NCBI RefSeq assembly: GCF_001186125.1
Contig: NW_014040418.1
Coordinates: 15,688-79,687, forward strand
DNA: 64,000 nt
Origin: Sphaeroforma arctica JP610
Taxonomy: Eukaryota
Reading direction: 5' to 3'
Below are positions 41,434-61,511 of the stretch, piece after piece. Each line of letters opens with the position of its first letter. The first letter of the stretch is position 1. The notes beneath the pieces are model-generated. The model searched no databases. It was not told the origin of the DNA and saw only the letters and a list, made by a program, of their open reading frames with translations. A program made the position numbers and the translations under genes.

Positions 41434-44400
41434 TCTAGGGAGTTACTTTTAGCCGCGCTATAAAAATATAACAAGAACATCCTTCCTCCTTCCCCTTCCC
41501 ACAAGTGTCCATATAGGTGAGTGAAAATATATTCATTCTTAAATACAAGCTCATGAGTTAGTCACGCTTATATTCTGAATGACTATGTGGTTGTAGCTAA
41601 TTAAATAGATGATTGGAAATACTAATTGGCAAGTATTAACAAGACACACGAAGTGATATACCGTGTTCAATTTACAATTGTTAGTATCAGTGTGCTTGTA
41701 GAGATCCACTGTTGCCTGGTATTAGTACTACACTGCAATGGATTCCATCGCTTTCTCACCTAACCAAATCCTCAATTTGACCACATCCACATCACAGACA
41801 GGACGATGCAAAAAAATAGGCGGCATGCGGACAACGATCATATGCTATAGAGAGTTTAGAGACGACTGCATATAAATAAGACTGCAGTTGTGATGGAATG
41901 CAGAGCGATATGTGATTGAAAATATATCTGTATGCCGTGGCTCCCGTGTTGTGCCGTACATGTGTGTGCTCGGGTTCGTGGCGGAGACCAGTACAGTGGA
42001 GATCCGAGGCGATGTGAATTTAGTTTTTTGGATTTAAGGATCGAAACGATATGAATTACTTTTATGTATGATAGAAAGGATAATGCAAAGGCATTCAGAT
42101 CTTCTGTGCTGCAACGGCTTCACCAACCACGCAACACGCTTCGCAGAAAATTGGATGCGCAGTATACTTTTAATTTAATAAACTTATAGCACGACAGGCA
42201 GTGAGCTCTGTCCATTTTGATTTGTTACGGCTTCATCAAACGCTCAGTACTTGGCCGAAGCTCGGCATTAGGGTTTATTAAATTCTGTAGTACCGCGGGT
42301 TGAATCTTCTATATTTTTCAGGCGCATTTCCCCATAAATTATATATTCAGTTTTTAATTTGTTGAAATGTCTATAATAACATATTAGAGGAACCTGTCCT
42401 GGTCCTGGGATTTTACACCTCACAAACATCTAATCTCGAATTTGATTCTTATGGCACGATGTATAAGTACGTGTGTACAGTGTAAATGTTTTAATATGTT
42501 CAACAACATGTTTTTGTATATGAACAATGTATTTACCTATGCACGAAATGCATGACAACTTATAATACTAACATACAGAATGTTCAACTTCCGGAACAGT
42601 ATTTTGCAATTGTGAATTTTATTGTCTTCTCAGTATGTAGTGCGCTGTAATCGAAGGCATAGCATTTCCGTTGATATTGGTGTCGGCACTTCACATCCTC
42701 GGTAATATAAACATGATATACAGTGAATATCTTTTGATTGTCTCGTTCTTGGAAAGTGAATTTGCAACCAGTTATTTGACTACATCGTACTAATTTTAAC
42801 AAATTCTCTGTGGTTGCGAATGACGTCATGCTCTATACGGGATCGGTCGAACGTATGACGTTCCACATGTCTGTTTCCTTGATATCGTAATATATAGGAA
42901 AATCACAAATGCACTAGTATACATATAAACTCATGCTTCTGTTTGAAGGAATCTTTTTGTTTGCTTTTAAATTTCACCAATCTCTCTCTCACACTCTTTC
43001 GAATTGAAGACGATAATGTAGTAAAATGTATGATAAAGCTCTTCAGTCGAGATACGACAATACAACAGGAATTAAATCGATTCTACTTTTATACATACAA
43101 TAAAACTCATAAATCGCATTTAGCAAGAGCAGCTTTCCGAGACCAACACAGTGCATCTTTTACAAATGGATTAGAACTGATAGCCTTGGTCTATTTGCCT
43201 TGAATATTACTCGGTACTTATGATCTTTCAAAAACAGCATTCATTTCCATCACTACTTGCAATGAATGTAAAATAATATTAAGATTAGTAACTTTATGAA
43301 ATATAAATACGAATCTAATTCCAGATATGTATTTCAAATTAAATCGTCGCTAATCCAATTCTTTTTGTACACAAAATGATTATCGTCAAATCTGAGCCTC
43401 AGTCCGTTTGTAAGATTTGCAGAAAGTCATGTTCGCACATGATTGAAACTAGTGCTCTTGCTATGGTTGCCGCTGGTGTTTGTTCCATCATTGACCTGAG
43501 TATAATATTGCACATTATGAGTATATGTCTAGCCAAACGAGGATGAACGTGATATTTCTACTCGAGTCTAGCAATGGACCTATTGTATCTAGTTGAATCT
43601 ATCGCCGGGGAAACAGTTGGTATTGATTGTAATCCGGTGAAAATCCTTTTTTGAATTTTGTTCATTTTGACTACATTTCAACTTTGTTTTTACTCCTCGA
43701 AGTAAGGATATGATCATATGTTAGTATTTAGGATCAGTTCAATAAATGCACAACGCCCCCTTTGTACGAGGAGAGTACGCTAAGATACAGTTATCTTTAT
43801 ATACGTCTTATTACAGTTGCCTACGTGCACTTTCTGTCGTTGTGGGTTTGCTTTTTTTTTTTATCAACTGCGTAGCGCCCCACTGAATGGTATTGCGCTA
43901 TAATGGTAGCATTGTCGTCGTGTGTGACTATGTCTAACTCTGCTGATTAGTCGGTGGTTTGTACCGCCGAGATTTTTATGGCTGGATGTGCTAGTCATTT
44001 TGTCAAAGTATAGTGACTTTGTGCCTGTTTTGGCGACTAACGTGATACCCCACAGTGGTTTTCTGTTGTTCCTGTTTTCCGCTAGCGTGGGATTTTTCTC
44101 GAGTACTGATGAGGATTTCTGGAATTATCTCCCCAAGATAGATTTGCCCACGCATGTATTCTATCTGCACATTTTTGGAGTAGTGCACTTTGTTCCTTGG
44201 TATAGAACTTTGCTATTTTTGCATTATGCGCAGCCTCAAATAAATCGACTGTGAATTTCTCAAACCTACGTTCCGCTTTTTTCTTGAAATCTTGTATGTA
44301 CTTACCAGTCTATGGCCGATATCAGTATGAGCATGTTCGTTTAAAGCGTTCATATTCATGACCGTTGTGTGTGTTCTTGTTAGCTCCTTTCAATATATTT

Positions 44401-44592
44401 GATGTTTTGATATTGAAAATATCTTCGTAAAATCCTGATGCATGATTTGTATGTCTTTGACTGGTACCTGGATAATCGTGAAGTGGAGGGTGGAATGTTT
44501 TTGATACCCACTTTGCTAGCATAGGGAGCTAGACCCAGGCGTCAAGAGTATGGAATCTTGGCTTCTGCAACCTTTTTAAATATTTCAGATGG

Positions 44593-45050
44593 TGTTAGCG
44601 TGTGATGTGGGGGACTATAAGTAAAGTGCAAATGTATCCAAAATATAGTGCGTTCGAATGTATTTATTTATGACAATCTCACCCTCAGTTATATACTGAT
44701 GGTGTTGTACTAGTGTTCAACCACTTGGGTTGGCCAGGGTGAAAACTCATATGATCAGTATGAGAAACCTTATGCAGAACACTTTAGCACTCGAATATAT
44801 TTTCCAGAAATAAATATATCATATTCTCTGTTATTACACTCAGTCTCGGACCTCGGCTCTCAGCTAGCCGGTGGCTCGTGTCCTATAAATAGAATAATCT
44901 GAGAAGAAGTCTCAAATTACTCTTACGTTCTCTCGGACTGACCCATCTATACGTATATTAATTTGAGAACAAGTCCCAAATTACTCTCGGGCTGACGACG
45001 TAAAACGGTATTAACGTATTTAGAAATACGTCTACTTCTGTAGTCTCTCA
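44593..45050 (+). mobile_element. Solo LTR (type A, 458 bp) with 5-bp target-site duplication
   Basis: TGTTAG...TCTCTCA termini, GATGG on both flanks (44588-44592 and 45051-45055), internal TATAAATA, and homologous inverted copies at 47688-47848, 52356-52826 and 53750-53860. Orientation is nominal. Confidence 0.93.
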
Positions 45051-45889
45051 GATGGTGTCCACTTGGTTCTTCTAACTGGACCTACTCGACAAATCATAAT
45101 ATGTAGCCAAGGCGTCTTCTAAACTGCAAGAGTACCCTAGTATATGAACGTATCTACCTCTCTCAGATGGATCGGTTCGCAATAAATCATTGAAATAAAT
45201 TTGCTGAGCCACTTGATGTTAGCCTCATGTATATGAACATCATTTAGCAACTGTGGTATTGACAACCGCGGTGGATTTGCCCATAACAGCTGCGCAAAAT
45301 GTTGAGCTGCATATATATATCTCTCTCTATGGTATCTGGGCCATATATATTGTCTGCGGTCTCAAACCATCTAGAGCTGGCTTTCCAATCGGTAGCTAGT
45401 AACTCGCGTACCATCTTTTTCAAGTCCAATATAAAGTGTGACAACATGTAGAGTGTAGAGAGTAGCTGAAAGGTACGACTGAAGGAAACAATAGACCTTT
45501 TCTCGAAGACGGTTATCTCAGCTAGGAAAAGTCCCTGGTCTGAGAGAGCCGAATTGAATCTCTATTTGTGTTTTCTAATTCACTAGGATCAGGTTTATAC
45601 TTGAGTGTTTCTCTCACACGCGGGGTCCCGATTTTTCTTACCGGTTCTACCGCTAATATTTCTGATGACTCTAATATCAGAAATACTTAGACCCGGGTCC
45701 AAAACTCAGTGTTTGATTATTCTGTGGTTTTGAGCTTTGTATTGGCTTTTTGATAATTTGGTCCCTGGATGCTACGAACATATCCGCAGTAAGTGAATGT
45801 GTTTCACAGGCGTATGTGATTTTTCAAAAGAAAATTTCGAGATCGTATCATGCCACATACTGATTATCCATCTGTGAGTTTCGTTCTAT

Positions 45890-46215
45890 TTCTAAAGGTG
45901 TTGCAATACATCGTTATTGTTGCACAGTTGGGTAATTGATTTGTGATGAGTTCACATGGCTCTGCTAAAGAACTGCACATATCTTGATTTCCCATCTATC
46001 ATTTGAAACGGTACACCTCTGATTGCCATGTCCGAGGCGTCTGTTGCTATCATGAACGGAACACCGGCTCTTGGTGGCTGAACTACCGGGGGTTGAACCG
46101 CCATTTTGAGCTGCTTAAAAACATCATGACAGGGTTTGTTCCATAAAACTCATGATTTACCTTTGTGACATCTTAATCCGACAAGAAGTTGACAAAACCG
46201 CACATGCTGTTCACA
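45890..46215 (-). pseudogene. Ty3/gypsy RT-connection/RNase H fragment
   Basis: The minus strand reads WNKPCHDVFKQLK...PPVVQPPRAGVPFMIATDASDMAIRGVPFQMIDGKSRYVQFFSRAM, then after a frameshift QINYPTVQQ. These are the TDAS and NYxxxE(K)E motifs. Confidence 0.8.
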
Positions 46216-46226
46216 TCCTTTCCTTT

Positions 46227-46708
46227 TGAGAGACAACAGGTCACAGACCAGATTTTACAGCAAGAACCCCTCTTTGATGTATAGTAGTCATCGGAGTTTG
46301 CTCACTCCTGAGAACTAATCAAGTTGCTTAAATTACTCCCGAGTGTTGAGTTAATACTTAACCGACTCCCGAGAGCAGATTAGGTTTCTCAACCAACTCC
46401 CGAGATTCAAGTCTGTCAACCGCAACATTTTAAAAAAGAGCTGCGCTTCTATGTGAGTCACAGTCTATACGGAAAGGCATCATGTGATCAGCGTGAGATT
46501 TAGTTGCAGAGAAGTCGAAATAGAATAGCATCGAAGTGTTAAAGTGTTCTGTAGAAGATTCCTCATACTGACCATATGAGTTTTTACCCTGGCCAGCCCA
46601 AGTGGCTGTACACTAGCAAAAATACTTAAATATGAAACCAAAGGTGAGGTCAGAGATAAATACATACATTTGCACTTTATTCAAAGTTTACTCCATTGTA
46701 CTCTAAAA
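46227..46708 (-). mobile_element. LTR (type B), inverted copy
   Basis: Reverse complement of the LTR at 47849-48334 along its length. No TSD seen. Confidence 0.88.
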
Positions 46709-46746
46709 GAAAGTATTAGTTTGCTGGGTTACTTCATAGTCCGACA

Positions 46747-47680
46747 CTAGAATTGAAATTCCTGCAATATTTCTCTTAGGTATTGTCGTTGATTAAGACG
46801 TACTTTTTCAGGGTGTGTTTCCACATCGCACTTGGGAAACCACGAAGGTGTGCCCATGTCGACAGTATTCCATTCGCCTTTCATTGCATCAGCTAGTTTC
46901 TGTCCGTCAGTCCTACTCTGGCATGCTGCAATTTTGTCATCTACATGTACAATAATGAAATACAGTCCACTGTGGGTTTGTTCAATGAACAGCACTCCTT
47001 CCAATTGTGCTTGTTTATATTGGTGGAGTATAGCAAACGAAGAATAGATTTAAACCAGTTGTGCCCGCTAGGTGGTAGGCCGTAAACGTAACGGCCAGCT
47101 CGACATACGACCTTTGTGTCTCCTTGTTTGTGCCTTTCGTATAGTTGTCTCTGGGGCGGATCAAGTGGCTGTTTAAAAAAGTCATATCCTTGCGGTACTC
47201 GCATATAGCTAAGGGTACTCGCATATAGCTAAGGGTACTCGCATATAGCTAAGGGTACTCGCATATAGCTAAGGGTACTCGCATATAGCTAAGGGTACTC
47301 GCATATAGCTATGGGTATTCGTATATAGCTAAGGGTATTCAGTTCTTGAGCAATGTAGGCCGAGGATGTACCGTATTGTCGAATGTCCATGTCGTAATGT
47401 GCCATTAGAGCTAGACAGATCCTGAGTGTTTCCTTGGCTAATACTGGGGCATAGCTTTCATCATAATCGACGCCCCGTTTTGCGTTGAACGCTGCTACGT
47501 TCAGACGTGATTTAAGTCGTGGGACTTGTCCTGATTCATCCGTTTTTGCCTTGAATACCCATCGAGGGGGTGTGATTTTTCCCGCGGTTTGTTGTCAATC
47601 AGAGTGAATGCCTTCCGCTGTATCACCAATCTCTTCATCTCTGAACGTGCTGATTCCTCCCAGTGGGCTGCATTTGGCAT
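46747..47680 (-). pseudogene. Ty1/copia reverse transcriptase fragment (RVT_2), frameshifted
   Basis: Minus-strand motifs RWVFKAKTDESG..RLKSRL, GVDYDESYAPV, MRVPQGY, VYGLPPSGHNW, IIVHVDD, DMGTPSWF and LNQRQYLREIL. Confidence 0.92.
47194..47340. repeat. 20-bp x7 tandem repeat inside the copia RT
   Basis: ggtactcgcatatagctaag at 20-bp spacing from 47194. Confidence 0.95.
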
Positions 47681-47687
47681 CTCATAA

Positions 47688-47848
47688 CATAAGGTTTCTC
47701 ATACTGATCATATGAGTTTTTACCCTGGCCAACCCAAGTGGTTAAACACTAGTACAAACACCATCAGTATATAACTGAGGGTGAGATCATGAATAAATTC
47801 ATTCGAACGCACCATTCTTTAGATATTTTTGTACTTTACTTTTTGTCC
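47688..47848 (-). mobile_element. Truncated type A LTR fragment
   Basis: Reverse complement of about 44620-44775, cut off by the type B LTR at 47849. Confidence 0.85.
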
Positions 47849-48334
47849 TGTTAGAGTACAATGTCGTTGACTTTAAATAAAGTGCAAATGTATGTATTAA
47901 TTTCTGACCTCACCTTTGGTTTTATACCTAAGGTGTTTGTGCAAGTGTACAGCCACTTGGGCTGGCCAGGGTAAAACCCCATATGGTCAGTATGAGAAAC
48001 CTTATGCAGAACACTTTAACACTTCGATGCTATTCTAATTCACTTTCTCTGCAAGTAAATTTCACGCTGATCACATGGTGCCTTTTCGCATAGATTGTGA
48101 GTCACATAGACCCGCAGCTATTTTTAGAATGTTGCGGTTGACAGACTTAATCCACTCTCGGGAATCGGTTGAGAAACTTAATCTGCTCTCGGAAGTCGGT
48201 TGAGTAATAACTCAGCTCTTGGGAGTAATTTAAGCACCTTGATTTGCTCTTGGGAGTGAGCTAACTCTGATGACTTCTACAAATCCAAGAGGGTTTCTTG
48301 CTGTAAAATCTGGCCTGGGACCTGTAGTCTCTCA
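47849..48334 (+). mobile_element. LTR (type B, 486 bp)
   Basis: TGTTAG...CTGTAGTCTCTCA termini. Homologous to 46227-46708 (inverted) and 52038-53034. The flanks (tgtcc, ctctc) do not form a TSD. Confidence 0.9.
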
Positions 48335-49157
48335 CTCTCCCTCAATTTTACAGTCTAAAGGGCTGAAGTCTGAAAGGCTGAAAATTGATAACTGAAGACT
48401 AATGAAGGCTGAAGACTAAAGACCGGGATTGTGAAATTGTTGACTCTGTAGATGGATTAGGCGATAAGCGTTGAACCAATGTATATATGTCGGAGACGTT
48501 TACGAATTGGTGCTGTTGAGTATGGTTTCGATGCAAATTGTTAAAAACGTTGACTTTTCTGAATAGTAGACGATCCTCTGTACAGTGACAGGCATCACGA
48601 CGGGCGTGGATAATCTTCTGTGGGACAGGCATCACAATTTCGCAGATAAAAATACCCGAGATTTTCTTGAAAAATAAATTTTGCTTACTGAATCGGTGTG
48701 GACTGTGGCGTGGATGTTGGGGGACACACAGCTCTGCGTTGTGGCATATTGGTTTGACTTTGGGATGTGGCCTGAAAGGCTGAGACTCAGAGACCGTGAG
48801 GCTGAGATTTTCTCTTGGGTCTTGGAATGCGCGGCTCTTATGCTGTGGTCCGGCTGCTATCCTTAGTATGGTTGCTTTTTTTTAAAAGTTATAATTTTGA
48901 TTAAATTGACCAACGAAATTCGTGTAGTGATAAATTCTACCCATTGAAAACAAAAATTCAGGCCGCAGTGGTCAAAAAGATACTTTTTTTTTGTTTACGG
49001 TTAGTACTCACAATGCATAGTGGGGGCGCTGGGGTAGAGAAAGTGTGGGGTTGTGGGCCCTGTAGGGGCCTGTGGGCTGCGGAATTTACAATTTTGTATG
49101 TATCCTTTCAGGATAAACTCATATTCCCTCCACTAGGAGGTTAAACATGGTTTTACC

Positions 49158-49312
49158 TGTTCATGAGTACCCTATATTAGGATTTTTGTCATACGCCATG
49201 TGACAATATGAACATGGCCGTACTGAGCATTTCAGTATAATAGGAACTTACACTTTTGTAAATAAACAGTCTTTGTGAAAGTACTTAGAATAAGTCCCTA
49301 TAGGTTATGGGC
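49158..49312 (+). mobile_element. Putative short 5' LTR and copia-type primer-binding site (GGTTATGGGC, 49303-49312)
   Basis: TGTT start at 49158, TATAA and AATAAA inside, and GGTTATGGGC 42 nt before the gag ATG at 49355. No second copy in the window to confirm the LTR limits. Confidence 0.55.
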
Positions 49313-49354: not shown

Positions 49355-52037
49355 ATGCTTTCCAACTCACCAACCAAATCCTCTGCGATCGCTTGGTCGA
49401 TCTTATTGAAAGATGGCTCCAATCTCGACCACTGGCTCTCTGATCTGGATATGGCTGCTACATCTATCTCATCTAAGGACTTAACTACTATCCTCTACCA
49501 TACTGAAACCCCTGAACTCGCCACCAATCTCAAAGATTTCTATTCTGATGTCATGAAAACTCCGCGGACAACCTGGACCCCGCTCAAAAGGCCACCATCA
49601 CCGAAGGAGATTACGTCAGCAACACTAAGGAATCTGGTGATTACCATGCCGCCAAACATCTCATTGTGGCAACTATCGCAATTGAACTACGTCTAAAGCT
49701 AGCTCCTACTATCAAGGCAGTCCACCCTTGGACACTACTCCAAATACTCAAGCGTCGCTTCAAACACCGATCTAGAACCTCCAGCGACATCATCGACGCC
49801 GCCTACTTACGTACTTTGTCTCGACTCCCATCCGAAACACCATGTGTCTAATCTCATCGCATCGAGGACATCCTACTCAGGGTTAAACTCCAAGATACGA
49901 CATTCTCCCCCAGTGTTGCACAATATTGACGGCTTATCTGACGCCGACAAACACCAGATCTTGAATATCTACCTTATGTCCCTAAAATCCCGAGACACTG
50001 TAACGATATACCACATGGTAGACTACCTAGAACGTCTCCATAAGTCTCTGATTCCTGCGCCAGCTAATGCCTCCCTTATCACTCCTAGTGTGGCTCAAGT
50101 CGCTCCAGCACCACAACCCACCATGCAAGAGGTTGTGCGTCTACTTACAGTGTTAACTACTAGCACTAAGGCTCCTCGTGACCGCCGTATGATGAAATGC
50201 TATGTGTGCCAGAAAACCACACATACATTCTCGGTCTGTACTAAAGCTTGCGGAGAATGTGGCCTCACTACCCACACTGGCCGCGAATGTACCACAACTA
50301 ACTTACAATGTTCTGTCTGTAACCTCACTGGGTATGTAGACGTCGTGTGCAGCAAACGTTCGAATAAAAACAATTTCCCTTACACAGCACCCTTTATTGC
50401 CAAAATTACTATACCTACTATATTCCGAGCTACCCAACCCACTACTAACAACCAGTCGCTTCTCATCGACGGGGGGAGGGGCTACCGTCAACTACATGCA
50501 CACCTCAGCTCGTCACCTCGTCACTAACGTCGAAACAGGAAGGGTTTTAAACCCTAAAACCCTAAACCCTTCCCACTCCAGCTCGCTGATAATGGCCTCA
50601 AACCCATTTACGCCCGAGGCACACTCCCACAGTTTGGCCTCACCTACCTGGACCCTGATCTAGTCCAGCCCCTCATCGCACAAAATCACATACAGGATGC
50701 TGGGTTTACCATTCAATATCCAGCAACACAGCCTCAGTGTCTTCTCTCATACCACACATACCACTTCACTATCCCTCGAATCAACGGTGTTTATTATGTC
50801 AACTACGACATACTTAAGCAGATGTTCACACTTACACCGCAGGTCGCCACAACACAGCCACACATCCCTACAACTACGCCGCCTGTGACCCCTCCCTCAC
50901 CTCCTACTGACGGACATCCCGCAGACCCTGAACCCCATAGCACTTGGCCAACAACTATGACTTATGACGCCTACCACCGAAGCACTGGCCACCGCAGTAA
51001 GCGTACTACCATCCGTATGGCTAAACGCGACGGTATTACACTCACTCTTCCTCCCCCTCTCTACGTCAATACCGAGGCTTAGATGTTCAGCAAAATTCTA
51101 CTAGTCAAGGCCTTGGATCTTCTCGGTGTCAAACCTACGATTGATATCTGCGCCTCTAAGACCAACGCGCAGTTTTCACGCTTCATTTCCCCCGAAGCGG
51201 CGAAGCACGTGACTGGTCTCATGCGGATCTGCGGAAGGAACTCGCCTACGCCTGTGCTCCTTGGTCCCTGATTAATGCTATAATCGCGGCAAACACCCGC
51301 GCTGGCAGCCGCATGGTAGTTGTTGTCCCACTCAGGCCGTGTGCCAAGTGATGGCCAGCTTTTCTCGCTCACCTCCAATCCCAACCGTTTATAGTTCAGA
51401 ACACTTCCACTACTTTTGCCCGACATGGTACTGCCACTGTAGGCAAACCCTCCTGGGTCTTCACTCTAGTGACTCTCATCGGCCCTCTACACTCACACGT
51501 CACGCCAGGGCCCGATCTCACAACTGTCATTAACTATGTTAAACTCCACCCGGAATTCCCCAAGAACTGTATCACCTGCCTCGATGGAAAAATCCGGGCC
51601 AAGGACGTCTCCCGTTCTTTGACTGACACAGTTTACGGACCGGGCGAACGTCTACATACAGATATTCAAGGCCCCTTCCCACTGGGCCGCTATGGCACCA
51701 GTCACGTTCTGAATATGTTTGATGCTAACTCTCGATATGGCCTCCACTCACTCCTTCCCGACAGACAAAACATGACCCACAAGGTCAAAGCACTCCTTAC
51801 CGCCGTCCCCGCTACATGGGTTCCGGACACAATAGTCGTCGACAATGCCCTTGAGTTCCCCAGCAAGGCGATGAAAGCCATGCTGATTGATCGACACATA
51901 CTTCTTCGACGACCCCCCCCCCACTTATTCACCCGCTCAAAACGCCAAAGTGAAGTGACCTCACGACACCTCTTGCGCAGCGCAGACATACCTCTCCCTT
52001 GTTGGGAAGACGCTAAGAGAGAAGCAGATGAACTTTT
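49355..52037 (+). pseudogene. Ty1/copia gag-protease-integrase, decayed and truncated at an LTR
   Basis: Zinc knuckles CYVCQKTTHTFSVC and CGECGLTTHTGREC plus a degenerate third; protease LLIDGG/ATVNY; YHRSTGH; CITCLDGK; integrase core GERLHTDIQGPF and VVDNALEF. Protease-then-integrase order is copia-type. Several frameshifts and stops. Confidence 0.92.
51066..51470 (+). pseudogene. Dam/DIRS-type N6-adenine DNA methyltransferase-like domain embedded in the copia pol
   Basis: NTEA*MFSKILLVKALDLLGVKPTIDICASKTNAQFSRFISPE, a frameshift near 51198, then ARDWSHADLRKELAYACAPWSLINAIIAANTRAGSRMVVVVPLRPCAK*WPAFL...GKPSW. This follows the recalled pattern PxIDLFASxxNxxxxRFxS...YAxPP[FW]xLI...hhhhPxWPxxxWWP. 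Confidence 0.75.
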
Positions 52038-53034
52038 TGTTAGAGGGCAATGTAGTAGACTTTAAATAAAGTGCAAATGTATGTATATATTTCTGACCTC
52101 GCCTTTGGTTTTATACTTAAGGTGTTTGTGCTAGTGTTCAGCCGCTTGGGCTGGCCAGGGTGAAACTCATATGGACAGTATGAGAAACCTTATGCAGAAC
52201 ACTTTAACACTTCGATGCTTTTCTATTTCGACTTCTCTGCAACAAAATCTCACGCTGATCACATGATACCTTTCGGCATAGGTTGTGACTCACATAGAAC
52301 TGCAGCTATTTTTAGAATGTTGCGGTTGGCCCACAGACTTAATCCACTCTCGGGATGAGAGACTACAGTAGTATTTCTATATACGTTAATAACGTTGTAC
52401 TTCGTCAGCCCGAGAGTAATTTGGGACTTGTTCTCAAATTAATATAAGTATAGGTGGGTCCGCCCGAGAGAACGTAAGAGTAATTTGAGACTTCTTCTCA
52501 GATTGTTCTATTTATAGAATACGTGCCACCGGCTAGCCGAGAGCCGAGGTCCGAGACTGAGTGTAGTAACAGAGAATAGGATATATTTATTTCTAGAAGA
52601 TATTTCCTAGTGCTAAAGTGTTCTGCATAAGGTTTCTCATACCGATCATATGAGTTTTTACCCTGGCCAATCCAAGTGGTTGAACACTAGAACAAACACC
52701 ATCAGTATATAACTGAGGGTGAGATCATAAATAAATACATTCGAATGCACCATACTTTACATACACTAGCACTTTTCTATTAGTCCCCCACACCTCACGC
52801 AAACAACTTATCAGGTCCCGCTAACACGAGAGCTGGTTGAGAGACCTAATCTGCTCTCGCGAGTCGATTAAGTTTTCACTCAACTCTCGAGAGTAATTCA
52901 AGCAACTTGATTAGCTCTCGGGAGTGAGCTAACTCTAATGACTTAGATCTCGGGAGTGAGCTATCTCTGATCCCTTCCATAAATCAAAGAGGGTTTCTTG
53001 CTCTAAAATCTGGCCTGAGACCTGTAGTCTCTCA
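52038..53034 (+). mobile_element. Type B LTR interrupted by a nested inverted type A LTR
   Basis: Matches 47849-48334 up to ctcggga (52355), resumes after 52831 and ends CTGTAGTCTCTCA at 53034. Confidence 0.9.
52356..52826 (-). mobile_element. Nested solo type A LTR with near-perfect 5-bp TSD
   Basis: TGAGAGAC...GCTAACA, reverse complement of 44593-45050. Flanks are CGGGA and CGAGA (one mismatch). Confidence 0.88.
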
Positions 53035-53042
53035 AATACTTT

Positions 53043-53322: not shown

Positions 53323-53749
53323 TCGCGACGTGACCCTTGAGAAATGAACCCCGTGGGTTGATCGACAGTGCCTGCGATTTACTTCGTTCGAAGATTTTCT
53401 TGTCTTCTATACCGTCGTCGGCCGGAGGTTCGAGTAAAGCTTTGGAGTTCTAACATTGACAAGGATGAGTTCGTTCTGCCTACTCGAGCAAGTCTCTGAT
53501 CTCAGGATCGAATCTGTCCTTCAGTTGATACAAATTCTTGACAAGATTCGCGAAAGCACCGCCACTTGTTACTCAGATGTACTTGAATCGAGCAACTTGA
53601 GAGAAATCTACTAGGAGGTCCACAGAACTACTGTCAAGCAGAGTAGCGTGCCATGCCTCGAAGTTGTTAAATCGTAAGGCTGTTTGGAATAGAACGGCAG
53701 TTCGGAATAGAAAGGCAGTTTGGAAATACTACAGGAGTGAACATATTCC

Positions 53750-53860
53750 TAAATACGTTAACAACGTTTTACGCCGTCAGCCCGATCGTAATTTGAGACT
53801 TGTTCTCAAATTAATATATGTATAGGTGGGTCAGCCCGAGAGGACGTAAGAGTAATTTGA
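53750..53860 (-). mobile_element. Type A LTR fragment
   Basis: Matches about 52378-52490 (tacgttaa...gtcagcccga...ttgttctcaaattaatata...acgtaagagtaatttgag). Confidence 0.8.
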
Positions 53861-53989
53861 GCGACCACGTGTGCGAAACTAGACAGATGTTCGTGAAAGA
53901 AGTTTGCTAAACCTAGCGCTGAAGCGATGTATTTGCACCGGTGAGGTGTTGTTGAATCAAGGTGTTGTTGAATAAGGCTTCGACTTTAA

Positions 53990-55200
53990 GAATTGAGGTG
54001 TTTAGCCTTATTCTAAAGTCGAAGCAATTTCTTTCGCTGAAATCTTCTTGCCCAAGATCATGACCTCAGCAATTGCAAAGTGACACTTTGCTGGGTTCAG
54101 TTTGAAACTATGGTATAACAGTTGCTTGATGACCTCCTGCACTGTGGCGATCTGTTCTTTATTTTTGTCACTGGCCATCACTATATTATCAATGTAGTGA
54201 TGTACGGGTGACCCCTCTAGTATCGTACTCTGCGTGCGTTGTAATTGCTGAGTCAGTACGTACAGTCCAAAAGGTAAGGAGGTGAACGAGCGCTTATATC
54301 AATCGTGTGCAAGGCTGAAGAGATATCTGAATTGGGATGTATCAGTAGCACATGATATGCTGCTTGTATGTCTAGTGTCGTGCAATACTTCCTACTCTTT
54401 AGCCTGGAAATACTTTCATTGACCTTCAGTATCAAGAAATGGTCGCGTGGTATGAGTGCGTTGACAGCCCTCGTGTCGAGATACACTCGAATTTTCTTTA
54501 CTCTGCCCTCACTGCCGAAAGTCGGAACTGCCAACAGTGGTAGATTGACTGTCGTCAGTGTCGTGCGCTTCATGACCGCTAGATCCTTAATCCACTTCGG
54601 TACTTGTTCGTCAACGTACGGCAACCACCTTTCTGATACAAAGTTGCGCGTAGATCTTTTCATACTCAGGGCGTGTTCGCGTCTTTATAGTATAGCGACC
54701 TCACTCCCCAGTAAGTGGCAACGTGCATTGTTTACAATGGCGGCGTTTGCTTTTAGTACTGTAGCTAGACGTGCCCGCACCCCCTCGAGAAGGTGGTTGA
54801 GCTCCGTTGGGTCAATCGGAGCAAGTCGTGATTGTCACCCCCCGATGTATAAACCCAGATCGGTCATCATTGTATCTAAGCCTACTATAGTATCGATGCC
54901 GTTGGGCAAGTTCATCAACCGGAACGATCCGTTGTGACTGTCGTTCTCAGACGAAGAGTACATACGGCTTTATCCGCTAAGTATATAAACGAATCGAGTG
55001 GTGCAGCTGTATTGATGTTCGTGCGATGTGTTCCCGATGCAGCTGCGGTTTGCACATGTACCTACCAACCCTCGGAATGTACGCCCGTTGACTTGTATTT
55101 GGATGTACACACGGTTGTTGATTTTAGCCACCAATATCGCATTGAGTGGATGAGCAAGCGTAAGCGCTACATCATCATCGGACACCCTCATATTTCAGGG
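53990..55200 (-). pseudogene. Ty3/gypsy protease-reverse transcriptase, decayed
   Basis: Protease region IQVNGRTFRGLVGTCANRSCIG (degenerate DTGA). RT motifs KIRVYLDTRAVN, TTLDIQAAYH, LPFGL, HYIDNIVMAS and FKLNPAKCHF. Protease-then-RT order is gypsy-type. Confidence 0.9.
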
Positions 55201-59543: not shown

Positions 59544-61511
59544 AATAGTACGTTGTGTGGATAAATGGAGGGTTGTAAATGTATGTAGACGTCCTTGAAA
59601 TGGGTCGGATATAGATACTCCTCCGTCCTAGAGAATCGTCTTCCATCTCAACAAGTCTCGACACTGTTCGTCTGGACAGGTGTATGTCGTGCTCCACGCT
59701 ACATTCCTGTCATGGTGGTAATTAGTACATGTGTCCTACCCTTGCCTTCTGCAGGCTATGTTGTCGCATGTTCTTCGCCGAAACACTCGTCGGGACACAC
59801 CCTGTACACCCTGTGTGCTACTTTAGGGAGCTCCTCAGCTCTCGCCTTACTCCCCTTTCTTCACTAATCTTACTCTCCGTGCTCCTGCATGTGCCGTTTT
59901 GTCGGCATGTGTCTACCTAGTATAGACCTCTCGTGCTCTACGGCCCTTCAATGTCTTCTAGATCCTACCTAATACGTTCTTCCCAGCAGCGTTACTACAA
60001 AGTTCTGCTCAGTCAAGGAGTTCCTGGTGCCTCTATGGCTTCTACTATGCCTTATACTCTTTCTACCTCGCACTTCCTTATTCTACCGAATATACTACCT
60101 GTCTATAAACTGTAACTTCTAAGTTGATTTCCTTATTTGCGGTAATCCTCTAACTGTGCCATTAGTCTATATATTTCCCTGATCCTACTACTCACCCTTA
60201 TGGTTAATGTACCTAGACGTTAACTAATTCGTACATACTCTCGTGTCCTTTGATCGTTCGATTTCGTGAGGAAAATCTCCCGTAGATCCGTGCGGAAAGT
60301 ATTATTCTTATAATCACATGGTATTCGTCGATGTTTGTGTGCGCTATTTGTTCTTTGTGGCCATACTTGTTTCTAACCATGGTGTAGTCCCTCGTGTTAC
60401 CTGTAATCAGCTTGTGTGAACTACTTGTCTCTCTCCTTTGCCTGTGGTTGGATTTCGGTTGTATTTCCTATAATTCTTATAACTTCTTGCCTTGTGTTTT
60501 TCACAGGAGCCCCCTTCTTATGTCTAACCAACTGCTACTATGTACACTCCCCTTTTACTTGTACTCGTTGTGTGTACTGGTACCATTTCTATAACGCAAT
60601 GCTTATTTAGCAATTTCTAACTAAAATGTATCTATTACAGGGTTCTAACCTGATTTCTAGCCTACAATGTCACACCTACCGTCTATTTTTACACCATAAA
60701 ATCACAAAATTATTCTTCACTATTATTTCCACTTATCTGACCGTCTGGCTGGACCCTCGTTTTGGTCATTTGGTCCTGCTGATCTTGCCCATTTCTTTCT
60801 TGAACTTCTGATGCCTACTGTTGAATCGGTTGCTCCTTCGTTTTGTCCGCGGTCTCCTTGGGTTCTGTCGTAATGCCAAAGTCTGCCTCTGACCTTGAAG
60901 TCACCGCAAAGATTGGCCGAAGCCTAAATCGTTCGAGCTGTCTGGCCATACTGATTCGATTGAGCCTGAATCGTCCATTGTTCGTCTCAATTTCCTTTGC
61001 TGAGCCCATCGGACGTGCTGATCGTTCAGACTCGGTGTCTCTTCCCCTTCACTGTCACTATTTGACATCAAGGATGGCATTGTGGCACTAGCGTCACTAC
61101 TGGTGTACCCACTATCGTCTTCTACCGCAATAGATTCTGAAAGATTCCTTCAATTTGCCGGGCCATCTTACTACTACTATTGTATTTCGATGGTTTCTCT
61201 TTTGTTCGTCTTATTCCTATAGAAAAAGAACCAATAAACTTCATTCAATTATTATAAAGTAGCTTATCCCTTAATTACTAATGAACTCACAACTTCCTTG
61301 GCAAGTTAAAAATGTAGTAAATGAACGCTTCAATAACTGTATCGCAACGTTCTCCCTCCGTAGAGAGGGAGATATTGTTCATTTATTAGTAATTGTATAA
61401 TTAATGACTCTAAAAGTGAGTCATAAGTCATGTGCTGTAATAGTCAGCAAAAACCAAATTTATCAGATTATTCTGATAAACTGTAAAAACTACAATAACT
61501 AAAATAAACAA

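Follow-up and report, generated by a model that had tools for sequence, protein, structure and literature searches.

Dam-type adenine methyltransferase domains have been described in the Gypsy LTR elements of ichthyosporeans, Sphaeroforma arctica included (Fernandez-Moreno et al., bioRxiv 10.64898/2026.05.21.726589). Every DAM-LTR lineage in the main text of that preprint is Ty3/Gypsy-like and carries its Dam domain outside the integrase, and the authors propose that the DAM-LTR domains seed N6-methyladenine (6mA), which the host AMT1 then maintains. The survey was built on RVT_1 and tyrosine-recombinase markers, and the words 'copia', 'Ty1' and 'zinc' have 0 occurrences in its main text. DIRS elements also bear such a domain, which Iyer et al. 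(PMC4738411) placed with PCIF1 and regarded as a likely inactive RNA binder. Capture of DNA methyltransferases by retrotransposons is further known from SymbioDIRS-Dnmt3, SymbioLINE-Dnmt and KnitGypsy-Dnmt3 (PMC5890265), and the Symbiodinium copia of the same account is without a Dnmt domain. In open-licence PMC and bioRxiv, no report was found of a Dam domain in a copia element or inside an integrase HHCC finger.

The locus described here lies in a stretch of 64,000 nucleotides (the window). An initial annotation, made from the letters of the window, had proposed that a copia element carries a DIRS-like Dam domain inside the zinc finger of its integrase. We compared this element with its relatives at the level of sequence, predicted fold and phylogeny.

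A split integrase finger in a truncated element

Table 1. Features of the element, in positions of the window.
Feature	Position	Strand	Basis or remark
Putative 5' LTR	49107..49302	+	adjoins primer-binding site; AATAAA at 49261; left border undefined
Primer-binding site	49303..49312	+	complementary to anticodon arm region of initiator tRNA-Met
Gag-like region, broken	49355..50400	+	three CX2CX4(H/Y)X4C knuckles
Copia-type protease, two frameshifts	50459..50803	+	44% identical to SARC_09551 (P0001) 25-110
Integrase His-His block and following helix	50951..51031	+	YHRSTGH 50972-50992
Inserted Dam-like N6-adenine methyltransferase domain	51074..51489	+	profile, and fold of the relative's domain
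Motif I DICASKTN 51143-51166; motif IV CAPW 51253-51264	within Dam-like insert	+	
Extra helix after Dam	51490..51552	+	conserved His 23 residues before first Cys
Integrase Cys-Cys half	51553..51612	+	CITC 51568-51579
Integrase catalytic core and start of C-terminal part	51637..52030	+	Pfam rve

The His pair and the Cys pair of the finger are exactly 575 nt apart in the window, as the initial annotation had estimated. This leaves about 192 residues between the second His and the first Cys, versus 23-29 by hand count in the copia relatives P0005, P0008 and P0010. The gap is occupied by a complete but broken Dam-like (PF05869/PCIF1-clade) methyltransferase domain of about 140 residues. Its PTIDICASK stretch (51134-51160) shares the frame of the His half, and DW..YACAPW..VVVVPLRP (51205-51345) shares that of the Cys half and the rve core. 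The gap follows the His frame until about 51199 and then the Cys frame, starting near 51205, and a single frameshift lies at about 51197-51207; the earlier description of an insert in frame at both ends with one internal frameshift agrees with this. Two stops lie inside the insert, TAG at 51080-51082 and TGA at 51349-51351. Each had been described as one base from TGG, and each aligns with a Trp in the open-frame relative SARC_09551 (P0001). Runs X11, X17 and X18, which come from three studies and two of which may have supplied the window sequence, have contigs over the insert region that differ from it by 0 letters; because they carry identical letters, the stops and the frameshift are genomic rather than assembly errors. 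RNA editing of the two stops was considered and rejected on 0 differing letters in two runs guessed to be RNA, weak evidence given that contigs drop rare variants. The helix that follows the Dam domain is 57% identical (12/21) to its counterpart in SARC_09551, where the model shows a helix at 336-347 with a pLDDT of about 90.

At the left end of the element we infer a 5' LTR, without a second LTR in the element; the segment 49277-49316 also occurs in a diverged contig in three of four runs. Drosophila copia is primed by a half-tRNA. The primer-binding site found here, GGTTATGGGC, occurs once in the window and is a 10-base match to anti-iMet, and it is contained in a published anti-iMet-CAU probe (10.1101/2024.01.30.575011). 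No tRNA gene was found in the window. The gag-like region has its knuckles at 50198-50239, 50249-50290 and 50309-50350 and gave no relevant Pfam match, and the integrase core matches Pfam rve with E of 1.5e-7 to 1.1e-6. An aaaccct-type repeat of about three units (50548-50569) sits at the second protease frameshift, and similar telomere-like words occur elsewhere in the window.

The element ends at about 52030, where a high-copy repeat (52032-52344) begins. RT, RNase H and a 3' LTR are missing from it, and of a possible LTR pair with its target-site duplication only the 5' LTR-like end remains; the window copy is now broken and truncated. In the guessed-RNA runs X16 and X18, from two studies, one contig over 50375-52071 starts near 50375-50389, with depths of 767 and 44 versus 9 and 5 over gag, and the DNA runs are flat. 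This gives a weak hint that the pol remnant is transcribed, of a kind in which contigs cannot show level, strand or start.

Assignment to Ty1/copia

The domain order protease-HH-Dam-CC-rve is continuous at 50459-51909, with neither RT nor RNase H between protease and integrase, and in SARC_09551 too the integrase part directly follows the protease. The Atlas model of residues 1-105 of this relative matches clusters of the copia Pol_BBD (PF22936) at TM 0.62-0.73; 5 of the 10 rows are named Pol_BBD and 0 are named RVT_1. When the finger halves were compared by HHalign, the HH block scored 42% against the first half of the copia HHCC versus 5% against the Gypsy H2C2, and the CC block 94% against the second half of the copia HHCC versus 23% against Gypsy. 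We assign the element to Ty1/copia, as the initial annotation had done, from the order of its domains, the match of the SARC_09551 protease to Pol_BBD and the copia character of both finger halves.

The integrase tree agrees weakly with this membership. Among 21 rows the core is sister to the copia protein P0005 (92/91), and the copia side has support of 73/85. The AU test leaves a grouping with Gypsy-DAM integrases unrejected (p 0.108), and the core profile scores, taken with the insert left out, are close (88.8 bits for copia versus 84.3 bits for Gypsy). Protease profiles of three sequences each scored no better than shuffles. Broken copia RVT_2 pieces with interspersed repeats on either side lie at 46750-47594 on the minus strand, opposite to the element and not joined to it.

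The inserted domain and its nearest relatives

The C-terminal piece was searched against 1.84 billion representatives at E up to 0.001. The search returned 26 matches, 19 covering the Cys-core part and 7 the insert. Six of these seven are Gypsy-order Dam domains, and SARC_09551 alone has the copia layout. Three of the six (P0003, P0017 and P0018) are complete Gypsy-order polyproteins that carry RT, RNase H, Dam and integrase, and the other three (P0004, P0007 and P0011) are fragments of such polyproteins; P0004 and P0007 are from S. arctica. The Dam-like character of the insert proposed in the initial annotation stands, and the nearest relatives found are the domains of Gypsy DAM-LTR elements, not the DIRS domains with which the annotation had compared it.

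The window domain is 27-35% identical to its Gypsy-order relatives. A profile built from the six Gypsy-borne Dam domains alone matched the window at 51211-51489 (E 3e-18) and SARC_09551 at residues 190-329 over positions 7-139 of 142 (E 6e-25), and SARC_09551 is colinear with the Gypsy domains from the first Trp to the last strand. The best of 2000 shuffles reached 7.8 bits, whereas the 42-residue N half of the insert scored 10.7 bits. The window pieces gave no direct Dam match in Pfam, PHROGs or PDB sequences, and the insert is therefore tied to Pfam Dam through SARC_09551, in which the family matches at E 1.2e-5 and 25.5 bits, below the curated cut-off of 28.1. The comparison with PF05869 that the annotation had suggested thus succeeds for the relative, under the cut-off, and fails for the window pieces.

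Neither SARC_09551 nor the integrase core had a sequence match in the PDB. With TM values of 0.59-0.70, the Atlas model of SARC_09551 resembles clusters of Dam and of RT-RNase H-Dam, and an Atlas feature search with the insert gave no usable match. AlphaFold2 with a 10-row alignment modelled the Dam domain of SARC_09551 with pLDDT mostly 70-94, versus 31 from the single sequence. The best solved match of model residues 182-331, via which the window's domain is compared, is CAPAM/PCIF1 (Z 9.6, rmsd 3.2, 137 aligned), consistent with the Rossmann-fold methyltransferase that had been expected; other matches are KsgA/Erm, M.TaqI and T4 Dam (the last with Z 7.8, rmsd 2.6 and 108 aligned). As modelled, the Dam domain of SARC_09551 is a SAM-dependent adenine methyltransferase fold, a fold that alone shows no activity.

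In the Dam tree, which also includes 8 rows from Gypsy elements, the domains of the two copia copies cluster together with 100/100 support. They are separated by about 0.9 changes per site and lie far from the Gypsy-Dam remnants of the window itself. The tree has no DIRS outgroup and leaves donor and direction unrooted.

Those remnants are two decayed Gypsy-order DAM-LTR elements on the minus strand (43390-44525 and 45035-46254), each with RNase H and then Dam pieces, one near P0003/P0007 and the other near P0018, 5-7 kb from the copia element. Over 43 columns, one of them shares 72% identity with P0007; together with the S. arctica origin of SARC_09551, P0002, P0004 and P0007, this makes an ichthyosporean of the genus Sphaeroforma the likely host. 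They likely represent the donor type of the copia-borne domain. A further decayed Gypsy protease-RT remnant lies at 53863-55119 on the minus strand. Interspersed high-copy repeats, each 160-490 bases long and 80-90% alike, lie in both orientations inside retroelement remnants at 44593-45050, 46227-46714, 47688-48334, 52032-53036 and 53728-53861.

Fusion or nested insertion

The S. arctica protein SARC_09551 runs through protease, HH, Dam and CC without a break in its frame and is colinear with the window element, whose two halves it matches at 40% and 55% identity. Across HH-Dam-CC the protein has no gap big enough for a predicted intron, as far as a protein alone can tell. This protein is itself incomplete: the protease active site is missing, and the sequence departs from the integrase just past the Cys pair. 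A weak match to its last 20 residues (12/20, E 0.05) occurs at 61327-61386 on the plus strand of the window, which suggests that the gene model enters another repeat past the Cys pair. By segment, window and relative are 44% identical in the protease, 70% (19/27) in the HH block, 37% in the N half and 53% in the C half of Dam, 57% in the helix and 65% in the CC block, values that rest on one protein pair in which the linker from protease to HH is also 39% identical over 28 aligned columns. The HH block is the most conserved segment.

A third, diverged copy is indicated by one contig, found in three of four runs, that matches the end of Dam (51434-51461) and the core (51704-51740), that is 28 and 37 matched bases, at a spacing of 231 letters versus 242 in the window. 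Read by eye, its flanking codons suit a Dam strand and are unlike both the window and SARC_09551. Another S. arctica protein, P0002 (SARC_06079), has the PEFPK-Cys block and the core in common with the window and begins after the insert; it is a possible fourth family member. The whole layout was seen in two copies only, the window and SARC_09551. Protein and contig searches yielded no full-length copy with RT, and viral and metagenome contigs yielded no relatives. At 80% nucleotide identity or more, no further copy of the insert region was found in seven runs, whose contigs prove presence and not absence. A word-indexed search found 0 of 795 candidates among longer proteins and only SARC_09551 at near lengths (1/159; 1/7243).

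The annotation had named an insert with its own target-site duplication or termini as the sign of a secondary, nested event, in which a fragment of another element entered a dead copia copy. The Gypsy-Dam remnants a few kilobases away in the window would offer a source for such a fragment. In contrast, SARC_09551 has the insert in frame at equal borders despite its divergence; these borders are those of the Dam domain, with no donor flanks (RT, RNase H or H2C2); the insert borders have no terminal inverted repeat, and their direct repeats are only 6-7 bases long, at chance level; and the copia-borne domain is distant from the window's remnants in the tree. We regard a nested insertion as wildly improbable. 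Very probably the arrangement is a fusion at the level of the family, as first proposed, and one old capture followed by replication would be the simplest reading of it. Since the distant second copy has the same layout, the family likely replicated with its Dam domain.

State of the finger and of the catalytic motif

On a copia finger profile of 59 columns, the HH block takes up columns 5-41 and the CC block columns 37-55, which by this alignment puts the insert in the variable loop before CxxC. All four zinc ligands are kept in the window and in SARC_09551. In the model of SARC_09551 the Cys region has a pLDDT below 50, and a complex model of the two halves with zinc scored 0.12 (mark 0.34). 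Because the HH and CC blocks are the best conserved, the finger is predicted still to work.

The His in the helix after Dam stands at the canonical His-to-Cys distance and is a possible alternative ligand. On that basis the upstream His pair could be orphaned, with cleavage after Dam or with the Cys pair using the post-Dam His, and Dam would then be placed before rather than within the working finger. This His is present at the same distance in both copies; however, it is the single such His that they have in common, and the upstream HH block, the most conserved of all, is in register with the copia HH motif. We consider an orphaned His pair very unlikely.

Both copies retain motif I. At motif IV, 5/5 Gypsy relatives that cover it have NPPW, the window copy has CAPW and SARC_09551 has NPIW, so that both copia-borne versions fall outside the active-enzyme pattern (N/D/S)PP(Y/F/W), and the doubt that the annotation had cast on catalysis by CAPW was well placed. 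To turn NPPW into CAPW takes a minimum of 3 base changes among 6 sites. The two stops in 465 codons correspond to a decay of about 5%, at which CAPW would arise by decay with P of about 0.002, or 0.05 at the upper bound, under a uniform mutation model based on those two stops. Because CAPW is improbable at this level of decay, the change in motif IV likely predates the death of the window copy, and because motif IV drifted while the fold was conserved, a non-catalytic binding role is likely. For the domain of the window's lineage, service without catalysis appears likely from its sequence, more so than an active enzyme, and this agrees with the view taken of DIRS domains in PMC4738411.

Proposed history and role of the domain

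We favor, with moderate confidence, a history in which a Dam domain was captured once into the finger loop of a copia element and kept as an integrase-tethered binder of the element's own RNA or cDNA. Its starting point is the equal layout and borders in two well-diverged copies, in which Dam is as conserved as the protease. Since the domain arrived without donor RT, RNase H or H2C2, we infer that a single capture took place by recombination; the likely source is a Gypsy DAM-LTR (or DIRS) element present in the same host. The zinc finger would close around the looped-out domain, both halves being the best-conserved blocks. A domain within mature integrase rides with the cDNA to the target, as general retroelement biology has it when cleavage sites are assumed, and as part of the integrase the Dam domain would accompany the pre-integration complex. 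On arrival the domain was likely an enzyme with NPPW, and in the window's lineage it likely worked without catalysis; the window copy itself ended broken and truncated.

Alternatively, the domain could be an active N6-adenine methyltransferase that marks the cDNA, the RNA:DNA intermediate or the target site, with new copies thereby entering 6mA-linked active chromatin of the host and with the motif changes tolerated or acquired after insertion. Motif I in both copies, and the Asn, first Pro and aromatic residue kept in SARC_09551, are consistent with such an enzyme, as is the enrichment of S. arctica DAM-LTRs in 6mA and expression given in bioRxiv 10.64898/2026.05.21.726589. However, the Asn of motif IV is absent from the window copy, the departures from NPPW differ between the two copies, and according to the same preprint DIRS, DAM-LTR and adintovirus domains yielded no 6mA in E. 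coli. We therefore look on an active enzyme as possible but doubtful. Slightly more doubtful still is its fullest form, a first adenine-methyltransferase copia lineage in which the finger refolds round a working enzyme and the integration machine writes or reads N6-methyladenine on cDNA or target. If true, new copies would be steered into the host's active-chromatin mark.

The domain might also be a tolerated passenger in a permissive loop, constrained merely to fold so that the integrase works. An insertion site in a variable loop, a drifting catalytic motif and known copies that are few and all broken would suit a passenger, yet one deletion could remove its 140 residues and it was kept across about 0.9 changes per site, with the C half of Dam more alike between the copies than the protease (53% vs 44%). 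A passenger is in our judgement unlikely. In the retained history of capture and tethered binding, the tie of Dam to the integrase and not to RT points to a role at integration.

Comparison with known systems

SymbioDIRS-Dnmt3, SymbioLINE-Dnmt and KnitGypsy-Dnmt3 (PMC5890265) resemble the present element in being retrotransposon polyproteins with a captured DNA methyltransferase, but theirs are cytosine methyltransferases, an unrelated enzyme class. The DIRS methyltransferase domain, as described in PMC4738411, is similar in fold, motif order, catalytic-residue substitutions and the match to CAPAM/PCIF1. In contrast, it lies at the end of RT-RNase H in elements with a tyrosine recombinase, whereas the window domain is on a DDE integrase.

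The ichthyosporean DAM-LTR elements, as presented in the main text of their preprint, share with the window element the Dam domain family, the LTR element with a DDE integrase and the likely host group. SARC_09551 may itself be among the orphan Dam proteins of the preprint's supplements, because it is in EukProt, the preprint's source, and scores near threshold. Unlike the window element, which is copia-type with Dam within the finger and a drifted motif IV, the Gypsy relatives place Dam after RNase H and ahead of an uninterrupted H2C2 finger, and their motif IV is NPPW. The comparison of sequences suggests a transfer of Dam between Gypsy and copia within one host. Copia would become the third group of retrotransposons with a captured Dam domain, one that the main text of the 2026 survey leaves unmentioned.

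Ty1/copia elements with a GAG-pre-integrase (PF13976) share the gag-protease-integrase order, the Pol_BBD, the HH and CC halves and the iMet site, and differ in the shorter stretch from the second His to the first Cys. The integrase HHCC finger thus appears to tolerate a 165-residue insert, which would make the finger loop a natural insertion site for integrase fusions. With its few, broken copies, the copia fusion is a handle on the function of transposon-borne Dam domains.
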